A stretch of DNA of 64,000 nt from Escherichia coli. GTDB lineage: Bacteria; Pseudomonadota; Gammaproteobacteria; Enterobacterales; Enterobacteriaceae. Every line of letters starts with the position of its first letter. Position 1 is the stretch's first letter. The stretch is from assembly GCF_003334335.1 (NCBI RefSeq), contig NZ_QOWQ01000007.1; one strand, written 5' to 3'. Positions 51,821 to 53,245 of this stretch are shown here, piece by piece. The notes below the pieces were generated by a model, which was not told the origin of the DNA, did not search any database, and saw only the letters and a list, made by a program, of their open reading frames with translations. The position numbers and the translations under genes were made by a program.

Positions 51821-53245
51821 ATGTTAAATGTTAAAAAAATCATTAACGATAGTAATATTGCGTTCGGTACTAGTGGTGCTCGCGGTTTAGTGATCGATTT
51901 TTCCCATGATGTTTGTGCTGCGTTCACTCATGCGTTTCTTTCTGTTATTGATGACAAATACAATTTTAGTAAAGTTGCCTTAGCCATTGATAACCGCCCA
52001 AGTAGTTACGAAATTGCTCAGGCATGCGCGTATGCTATAAAACAACATGGATTCGAGGTTGAATATCATGGTGTAATTCCGACTCCTGCATTAGCTCATT
52101 ATTCGATGCAGAAAAACATTCCCTGCATAATGGTCACAGGGAGTCATATCCCTTTTGATCGTAATGGCTTAAAATTCTACAGACCTGATGGTGAAATCAC
52201 TAAAGAGGATGAGCTCGCAATTATAAATAGTGAGTATACATTTTCGCCTGTAGGTGAATTACCTCATCTTGAAACAAGCACTCAAGGTGCAGACTACTAC
52301 CTCGAACGTTATGTTTCTCTTTTTAATCCCGAGATTTTAAAGGGGAAAAGAATAGGGGTATATGAACATTCTAGTGCGGGACGCGATTTATATGCTCCTC
52401 TTTTTAATCAAATGGGTGCAGAGGTCATTTCCCTCGGTAGGAGTGATGAGTTCGTTCCGATTGATACGGAAGCAGTAAGCGATGAAGATCGTATACTTGC
52501 AAGAGAGTGGTCTAAAAAATATAATCTTGATGCTATTTTCTCAACAGATGGCGATGGTGATCGTCCTTTAGTTGCCGATGAAAATGGTGAATGGTTAAGA
52601 GGCGATATTCTGGGACTACTTACTGCTATTGAACTTAATATCAAGGCGTTGGCTATTCCAGTGAGTTGTAATACAGCAATTGAAGAGTCTAATAAATTTG
52701 CAAGTATACAACGAACGAAAATAGGTTCTCCTTATGTAATTGCAGCATTTGCAGATCTTGCTAAGCAATTTGATTCAGTCGCTGGTTTTGAAGCTAATGG
52801 TGGTTTTCTCCTTGCCTCCGATTTACAAATTAATGGCAAGGAATTAAAATCGTTACCTACACGAGATGCTGTGTTACCAGCATTAATGCTCTTAATAGCT
52901 TCTCGCAATAGTACTATTTCTCAACTGATTAATAATCTTCCTCAGCGATTCACTTGGTCAGATAGAGTTAAAAACCTCCCTTCAGATTCAAGTCAACAAA
53001 TTATAAAAAATGCCATATCGTCACCCAATAATTTCTTTAATAGTTTAGGTTATGAATCATTATCCTGTTCCGCTATTGATGAAACGGATGGTGCAAGATT
53101 TACTTTAAATAATGGTGATATTATACATCTCCGTCCTTCCGGTAATGCTCCAGAACTCCGTTGTTATGCTGAGGCCAGTGATGAAAATCAGGCTAAGCAA
53201 TATGTTACGAATGTGCTGGGAAATATTACCTCTTTGATTTCTTGA
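51821..53245 (+). CDS. manB: Phosphomannomutase-like alpha-D-phosphohexomutase (O-antigen copy, divergent from CpsG)
   Basis: 474 aa; 'TGSHIPFDRNG' active-site loop, 'DGDGDR' metal site, 'FEANGG', 'RPSGNAPELR' phosphate-binding loop. Confidence 0.8.
   Translation: MLNVKKIINDSNIAFGTSGARGLVIDFSHDVCAAFTHAFLSVIDDKYNFSKVALAIDNRPSSYEIAQACAYAIKQHGFEVEYHGVIPTPALAHYSMQKNIPCIMVTGSHIPFDRNGLKFYRPDGEITKEDELAIINSEYTFSPVGELPHLETSTQGADYYLERYVSLFNPEILKGKRIGVYEHSSAGRDLYAPLFNQMGAEVISLGRSDEFVPIDTEAVSDEDRILAREWSKKYNLDAIFSTDGDGDRPLVADENGEWLRGDILGLLTAIELNIKALAIPVSCNTAIEESNKFASIQRTKIGSPYVIAAFADLAKQFDSVAGFEANGGFLLASDLQINGKELKSLPTRDAVLPALMLLIASRNSTISQLINNLPQRFTWSDRVKNLPSDSSQQIIKNAISSPNNFFNSLGYESLSCSAIDETDGARFTLNNGDIIHLRPSGNAPELRCYAEASDENQAKQYVTNVLGNITSLIS

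Follow-up and report, generated by a model that had tools for sequence, protein, structure and literature searches.

The 64,000-nucleotide stretch of Escherichia coli DNA analysed here in its entirety (the window; contig NZ_QOWQ01000007.1 of RefSeq assembly GCF_003334335.1) carries two phosphohexomutase genes, manB in the O-antigen cluster and cpsG among the colanic-acid genes. The subject of this analysis is the O-antigen manB, for which a preliminary description of the sequence had suggested a lineage and an origin separate from those of cpsG and, possibly, a different substrate preference. The product of this gene is classified by its sequence in a subfamily of phosphomannomutases (PMM) distinct from the PMM/phosphoglucomutase (PGM) class that includes CpsG. 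The two genes and the conserved motifs of O-antigen ManB are as follows.

51821..53245, plus strand: O-antigen manB, an open reading frame (ORF) with an ATG start encoding 474 amino acids (aa), an alpha-D-phosphohexomutase of the TGSHIP ('ManB') subfamily; RefSeq WP_087895191.1, 'phosphomannomutase'
51863..51886, plus strand: N-terminal FGTSGARG motif, aa 15-22; FGTSGxRG is present in 118 of 120 close homologs and 121 of 150 clade representatives
52136..52168, plus strand: phosphoserine loop TGSHIPFDRNG, aa 106-116, with Ser108 as the predicted catalytic residue; the same TGSHIP is found in the structure 4hjh
52547..52564, plus strand: metal-binding loop DGDGDR, aa 243-248; DGDxDR is kept throughout the clade
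52790..52804, plus strand: sugar-binding loop (F)EANGG, aa 324-328; also in 4hjh
53132..53161, plus strand: phosphate-binding loop RPSGNAPELR, aa 438-447; also in 4hjh
31202..32572, plus strand: cpsG, the colanic-acid phosphomannomutase of the PMM/PGM class, used as the comparison paralog; 456 aa, NCBIfam PRK15414 'phosphomannomutase CpsG' with 1054 bits

The reading frame of O-antigen manB and every catalytic loop are intact. The protein matches all four Pfam domains (PGM_PMM_I, II, III and IV; E from 7e-23 to 1e-5) and fits the loop pattern of the superfamily, namely, xxSHxP, DxDxDR, a sugar loop with a conserved Glu, and RxSxxxPxxR. The motifs are all present where the preliminary description had placed them, and so is the contrast between TGSHIP and TASHNP that it had drawn: the loops of CpsG (true start at the ATG at 31202, MKKLTCF; the mechanical ORF begins at TTG 31154) are TASHNP, DGDFDR, GEMSAH, and RTSNTEP, and O-antigen ManB, instead of the TASHNP serine loop and the GEMS(G/A)H sugar loop of the PMM/PGM class, contains TGSHIP and FEANGG. 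BLASTP aligns the two proteins with 42 bits (E 2e-8), and they share 20.5-21% identity. The other four sugar-pathway genes of the O-antigen cluster are clearly homologous to their colanic-acid counterparts, as had also been described, with 80% identity for gmd, 73% for fcl, 50% for gmm, and 59% for manC. Against this range of 50-80%, the 21% identity of the manB pair is a real contrast, far beyond chance.

None of the curated NCBIfam profiles is matched at its cut-off by O-antigen ManB. It does not match PRK15414, and its score with the PMM/PGM model PRK09542 (66.8 bits) is far under the cut-off of 618. The highest NCBIfam scores come from GlmM models, Arch_GlmM (TIGR03990; 172 bits, cut-off 439) and glmM (TIGR01455; 101 bits, cut-off 447.55). 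These scores, along with an EANGG sugar loop where PMM/PGM enzymes have GEMS(G/A)H, are the kind of evidence that would be expected if the main substrate differed from that of CpsG and the enzyme were a phosphoglucosamine, phosphoglucose, or N-acetylglucosamine-phosphate mutase. However, the scores fall far short of GlmM membership, and CpsG itself scores higher on both GlmM models (306 and 183 bits) as well as on PRK09542 (384 bits), so that these matches reflect generic superfamily similarity.

The best solved relative of O-antigen ManB is PDB 4hjh ('Phosphomannomutase'), with 368 bits (phmmer, E 4e-109), an alignment over residues 10-460, and 43-44% identity; its loops are FGTSGLRG, TGSHIP, DGDADR, FEANGG, and SGNAPELR. 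The next structures are archaeal PGM/PMM and GlmM, with only 60-78 bits, followed by AlgC and XanA with about 23-25 bits. Conversely, CpsG matches XanA (569 bits) and AlgC (193 bits), and 4hjh is not among its matches at E<=1e-10. When 1.84 billion representatives were searched exhaustively with HMMER, a TGSHIP clade of about 590 clusters at 50% identity emerged at E<=1e-30. Among the 150 best clade representatives, TGSHIP is found in 138 and [FY]EANGG in 116, and the commonest phosphate loop is SGNAPE[LF]R; the 120 closest homologs all contain both TGSHIP and [FY]EANGG, and 111 have RPSGNAPELR. Some of the clade representatives (P0195, P0227, P0230, P0254, P0257, and others) are embedded in proteins of about 1000-4400 aa, which may be fusions or artefacts of eukaryotic gene models.

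In a neighbor-joining (NJ) tree of 38 sequences, the ingroup consisted of 34 sequences (ManB of the window, of E. coli 042 and of Vibrio cholerae, 4hjh, 6 named gammaproteobacterial homologs, and 24 clade representatives), with only 4 outgroups (CpsG, GlmM and Pgm of E. coli, and the archaeal 9du5). All 200 of 200 bootstrap replicates recovered the TGSHIP clade as monophyletic with respect to these outgroups, and only 68 placed CpsG as its sister. By sequence, then, O-antigen ManB is classed as a member of the 'ManB' subfamily, that is, the TGSHIP clade typified by 4HJH, in a lineage other than that of CpsG; both the tree and the lack of any NCBIfam match at cut-off bear out the separate lineage that had been proposed. 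4HJH and O-antigen ManB are probably members of the NCBI CDD subfamily cd03088. In CDD, 'ManB' cd03088 is listed as phosphomannomutase, apart from 'PMM/PGM' cd03089 (PMC9426568, Table 1).

Two characterised or named enzymes were considered as members of the clade and rejected. Coxiella CBU0294, a characterised PMM/PGM, is 55% identical to AlgC and thus belongs to the other class. RfbB/ManB of V. cholerae O1 (VC0242) had been assumed to be a member given the V. cholerae 'ManB protein' cluster (Q7DKM7, O87164), which is 51% identical to O-antigen ManB, but it is of the CpsG type, judging by the V-K-E-L-T-C-F encoded in the cloning primer (PMC9915646) and by a gene length of 1392 nt. Because both are of the CpsG/AlgC type, neither lends support to the TGSHIP clade. 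The two manB types thus both occur in V. cholerae, divided between serogroups: the TGSHIP type, a 483-aa protein (gene at 6001-7452 of its contigs), next to manC in a cluster of the non-O1 type, and the CpsG-like VC0242 in O1.

The base composition of O-antigen manB (38% G+C; 25% at third codon positions) resembles that of the rest of the O-antigen cluster (29-41%) and differs from that of cpsG (55%) and of the wca region (about 54-57%). The low G+C content fits a low-GC donor from which the gene and the O-antigen module were acquired together, and the proposal of an origin separate from that of the resident cpsG is supported by this sequence evidence. The gene in E. coli is under purifying selection: the ratio of nonsynonymous to synonymous substitution rates (dN/dS) is 0.11 with respect to the allele of the O36-family cluster and 0.13 with respect to that of the SD2019180-type cluster, at dS of 0.36-1.9. 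This result bears on the possibility that manB is a redundant passenger, dispensable or decaying, with mannose-1-phosphate already supplied by cpsG. Indeed, cpsG is intact in the window, and a cpsG-like copy has taken the place of the original manB in O157 (PMC3158064), which shows that the two types of manB are interchangeable. Apart from the low dN/dS, however, the intact frame, the presence of all catalytic motifs, and the retention of this manB in 333 genomes across several serogroups argue against a passenger status. In addition, the expression of colanic-acid genes is poor at 37 C, and cpsG may therefore not feed O-antigen synthesis. Altogether, we consider redundancy or decay of manB extremely unlikely.

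The genes that surround manB are listed next.

49663..51069, plus strand: O-antigen manC, mannose-1-phosphate guanylyltransferase/phosphomannose isomerase, the pathway partner of manB; 59% identical to cpsB
51069..51815, plus strand: GT2 glycosyltransferase gene between manC and manB, in the position of wfeY and likened to it by position only
47082..49657, plus strand: O-antigen gmd, fcl, and gmm, the GDP-fucose branch, which would consume GDP-mannose made via manB/manC

The wfeY gene sits between manC and manB in O36, O41, O156, O159, O168, and SD2019180, and its product is the proposed alpha-L-Fuc-(1->3)-GlcNAc transferase in the clusters of O36, O41, O156, O159, and O168 (PMC10606467). The gmd-fcl-gmm-manC-GT2-manB module of the window is also present in the O36-family cluster and in the SD2019180-type cluster, and the ManB of one E. 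coli strain is WP_054486156.1, the protein cited for the SD2019180 serogroup (PMC10606467). The wzx/wzy pair of the window (41347-44023) was detected in only 3 of 5426 complete E. coli genomes, none of them serotype-labelled. With the pair so rare and the sugar-pathway module shared, the cluster joins a rare serogroup-specific part to a common module.

Several observations concern gene models in this region. Near the 3' end of wzy (ORF 42803-44023), the window has an A7 homopolymer at 44003-44009, in contrast to the A6 of the closest genome, LR-29-1; with the additional A, Wzy ends in ...VVKKIK* rather than ...VVKKLNRILR*. This is the sole indel in 20 kb that are otherwise 99.99% identical to LR-29-1 and may reflect either slipped-strand variation or an error in sequencing. 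The O36-family wzy of E. coli isolate 23 (positions 1-233 of its locus) is annotated in RefSeq as a frameshifted pseudogene. The mechanical ORFs start upstream of the RefSeq starts, the latter placed by the offset from LR-29-1, in gmd (47082 versus ~47100), ugd (55042 versus ~55105), and wzx (41347 versus ~41368).

The association of manB with manC extends well beyond the window. The two genes are adjacent or within 3 kb of each other in E. coli LR-29-1, in E. coli 042, where they lie within the O17/O44/O73/O77/O106-family cluster, and in the O36-family and SD2019180-type clusters. The homolog with 51% identity in the V. cholerae cluster of the non-O1 type adjoins manC, as does a metagenomic homolog with 55% identity; a homolog with 50% identity, in a capsule-type locus, has manC, gmd, and fcl within 3 kb, and one with 45% identity adjoins a GT10 fucosyltransferase gene. 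In Brucella, a 477-aa 'phosphomannomutase' that is 98% identical to 4hjh is encoded directly upstream of manC, in a locus outside any O-antigen cluster; this arrangement fits the manBcore-manCcore pair, and we infer that the Brucella manBcore gene belongs to the TGSHIP clade.

This link to Brucella brings in genetic evidence. Disruption of manBcore (BMEII0899) results in deep-rough lipopolysaccharide (LPS), the core of which lacks mannose and its branch and retains glucose (PMC4817197). The naturally rough Rev.1 strain carries G103E, a replacement of the Gly just before the catalytic residue (PMC7762576), and position 103 agrees with the numbering of the TGSH loop in 4HJH. The adjacency of manC and the manBcore genetics together indicate an ordinary phosphomannomutase function. 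A main substrate other than that of CpsG is, accordingly, hard to reconcile with the manC linkage across Enterobacterales, Vibrio, Brucella, and metagenomic lineages, with the loss of mannose but not glucose in the manBcore mutant, and with the existence of separate glmM and pgm genes in E. coli. Notwithstanding the crystallisation of 4HJH with glucose-6-phosphate and its designation as a phosphoglucomutase, we regard this alternative as very improbable, and the different substrate preference envisaged in the preliminary description is not borne out, although O-antigen ManB may differ from CpsG in its secondary activities.

A bifunctional enzyme similar to AlgC, active on mannose and glucose phosphates alike and with divergent loops that do not affect specificity, is a less remote option. 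Bifunctionality is common in the superfamily, as in AlgC and Coxiella CBU0294, and the glucose-6-phosphate bound in 4HJH is compatible with it. The CDD label, taken at face value, is by contrast that of a straight phosphomannomutase, and glucose is still incorporated when manBcore of Brucella is disrupted; the latter fact, however, shows only that another PGM exists. We consider bifunctionality possible but doubtful; it overlaps with the reading that we favour because PMM activity is part of both.

That favoured reading, to which we assign a probability of about 0.88, is that the product of O-antigen manB is a working phosphomannomutase within the 'ManB' subfamily. Several points weigh against it. 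No NCBIfam model reaches its cut-off with O-antigen ManB, and the literature that could be searched yielded no enzyme assay of a TGSHIP-clade protein. Among the seven contexts of distant clade members that were read, mostly on short contigs with little context, three (P0166, P0194, and P0236) contain no polysaccharide genes. One of these three, with 41% identity, on a metagenome contig (gene 6001-7428), is located among TrmB and thermosome (Cpn60_TCP1) genes, which suggests an archaeal, housekeeping-type protein of the ManB clade. The identity of 4HJH as ManBcore (BMEII0899) or a close paralog is probable, from context only. The 4HJH crystal holds glucose-6-phosphate, and the protein is called 'phosphoglucomutase' (PMC7762576, figure legend), which leaves room for a PGM or bifunctional activity. 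Finally, CpsG of the same genome could supply mannose-1-phosphate alone.

The assignment of O-antigen ManB as a phosphomannomutase combines directly observed features, namely, the sequence with its motifs, clade membership, distribution, gene context, and purifying selection, with a catalytic mechanism and mannose specificity that we infer. Because the loops are conserved and the chemistry of the superfamily is well established, the reaction is expected to follow the standard phosphoserine/Mg2+ ping-pong scheme. With Mg2+ bound by D243, D245, and D247, the phosphorylated Ser108 of the TGSHIP loop would donate its phosphate to mannose-6-phosphate; the mannose-1,6-bisphosphate intermediate would then reorient and hand back the other phosphate, yielding mannose-1-phosphate. 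ManC, encoded two genes upstream, with the GT2 gene in between, would next make GDP-mannose, and Gmd and Fcl would turn this into GDP-L-fucose for the O unit. O-antigen manB is part of a low-GC mobile module, gmd-fcl-gmm-manC-GT2-manB, common to several E. coli O-antigen clusters, and would perform the same job as the resident cpsG despite an unlike evolutionary origin.

The survey of 5426 complete E. coli genomes used two nucleotide settings. O-antigen manB is present in 187 genomes when >=90% identity is required; with the sensitivity of blastn (65-100% identity), this type is found in 333 (~6%), nearly always on the chromosome, and every one of the matches listed is annotated as 'phosphomannomutase'. 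Beyond E. coli, homologs with 62-78% identity, all named phosphomannomutase, are present in Lelliottia, Enterobacter, Kosakonia, Citrobacter, Providencia, Photobacterium, Vibrio, Aeromonas, and Catenovulum. The expectation that this manB would be unusual therefore does not hold, given the 333 genomes and the TGSHIP shared by all 120 close homologs. Had the gene grouped with ordinary enterobacterial ManB and the motif variant been common there, the proposed separate lineage would have been in doubt; the variant is indeed common among enterobacterial O-antigen ManB, but the clade that it marks is separate from CpsG in all 200 bootstrap replicates of the NJ tree. Sequences similar to cpsG occupy 5707 places in 4673 of the genomes, so that up to ~1000 genomes, BL21 being one example, may hold a second manB of the cpsG type. 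Thus, E. coli O-antigen clusters employ two non-orthologous manB types, with the ManB type in a substantial minority.

The ManB-type phosphomannomutase is already known, through its RefSeq name, the crystal structure of a member, and a CDD subfamily separate from PMM/PGM, and O-antigen manB genes have been treated in the literature as heterogeneous and exchangeable (PMC3158064, PMC7685785). With the gene correctly annotated in RefSeq and a homolog solved, the case carries little weight as a discovery. Its value is that of a calibration point: with two manB types in E. coli clusters, ~330 complete genomes with the ManB type, and up to ~1000 with a further copy resembling cpsG, a manB that shares little identity with cpsG is no sign of new chemistry.

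Two more speculative ideas can be attached to the divergence of manB. The replacements of Asn by Ile (TGSHIP), of Ser by Asn (EANGG), and of Thr-Glu by Asn-Ala (SGNAPE) may set a specificity or regulation unlike that of the bifunctional CpsG/AlgC class, with the ManB subfamily being strictly mannose-specific. Furthermore, an O14 cluster was deleted by recombination between cpsG and a cpsG-like manB (PMC7685785); by analogy, a manB without usable DNA homology to cpsG may protect its O-antigen cluster from such deletions. Jointly, we hold these two ideas to be rather unlikely.

Among known systems, the CpsG/RfbK/AlgC/XanA group (PMM/PGM class; cd03089; PRK15414, PRK09542) shares with O-antigen ManB the superfamily, the four domains, the reaction, and the pathway step, but is only 21% identical to it and has TASHNP, GEMS(A/G)H, and R(T)SNTEP in place of TGSHIP, EANGG, and SGNAPELR. 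The nearest sequences beyond the clade, archaeal-type PGM/PMM and GlmM (PDB 9du5, 1wqa), show 24-25% identity with 78-100 bits, possess (A/S)SHNP serine loops and TEP phosphate loops, score far under the family cut-offs, and fall outside the clade in 200 of 200 replicates. Brucella 4HJH is the closest counterpart of solved structure: like O-antigen ManB, it is a four-domain protein (474-481 aa) with FGTSGxRG, TGSHIP, DGDxDR, FEANGG, and SGNAPELR, and a manC neighbour; unlike it, 4HJH is alphaproteobacterial, comes from a housekeeping-like locus for the supply of mannose to the LPS core and perosamine rather than from an enterobacterial O-antigen cluster, and has DGDADR instead of DGDGDR. Within E. 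coli, ManB of the O36-family, SD2019180-type, and O17/O44/O73/O77/O106-family clusters belongs to the same subfamily, with the same motifs and 92%, 67%, and 60% amino-acid identity, respectively, to ManB of the window, whereas these clusters differ in wzx, wzy, and the remaining glycosyltransferases. Many other E. coli O-antigen clusters, such as those of O157 and E. coli B/O7, use a CpsG-type manB where these have the ManB type.

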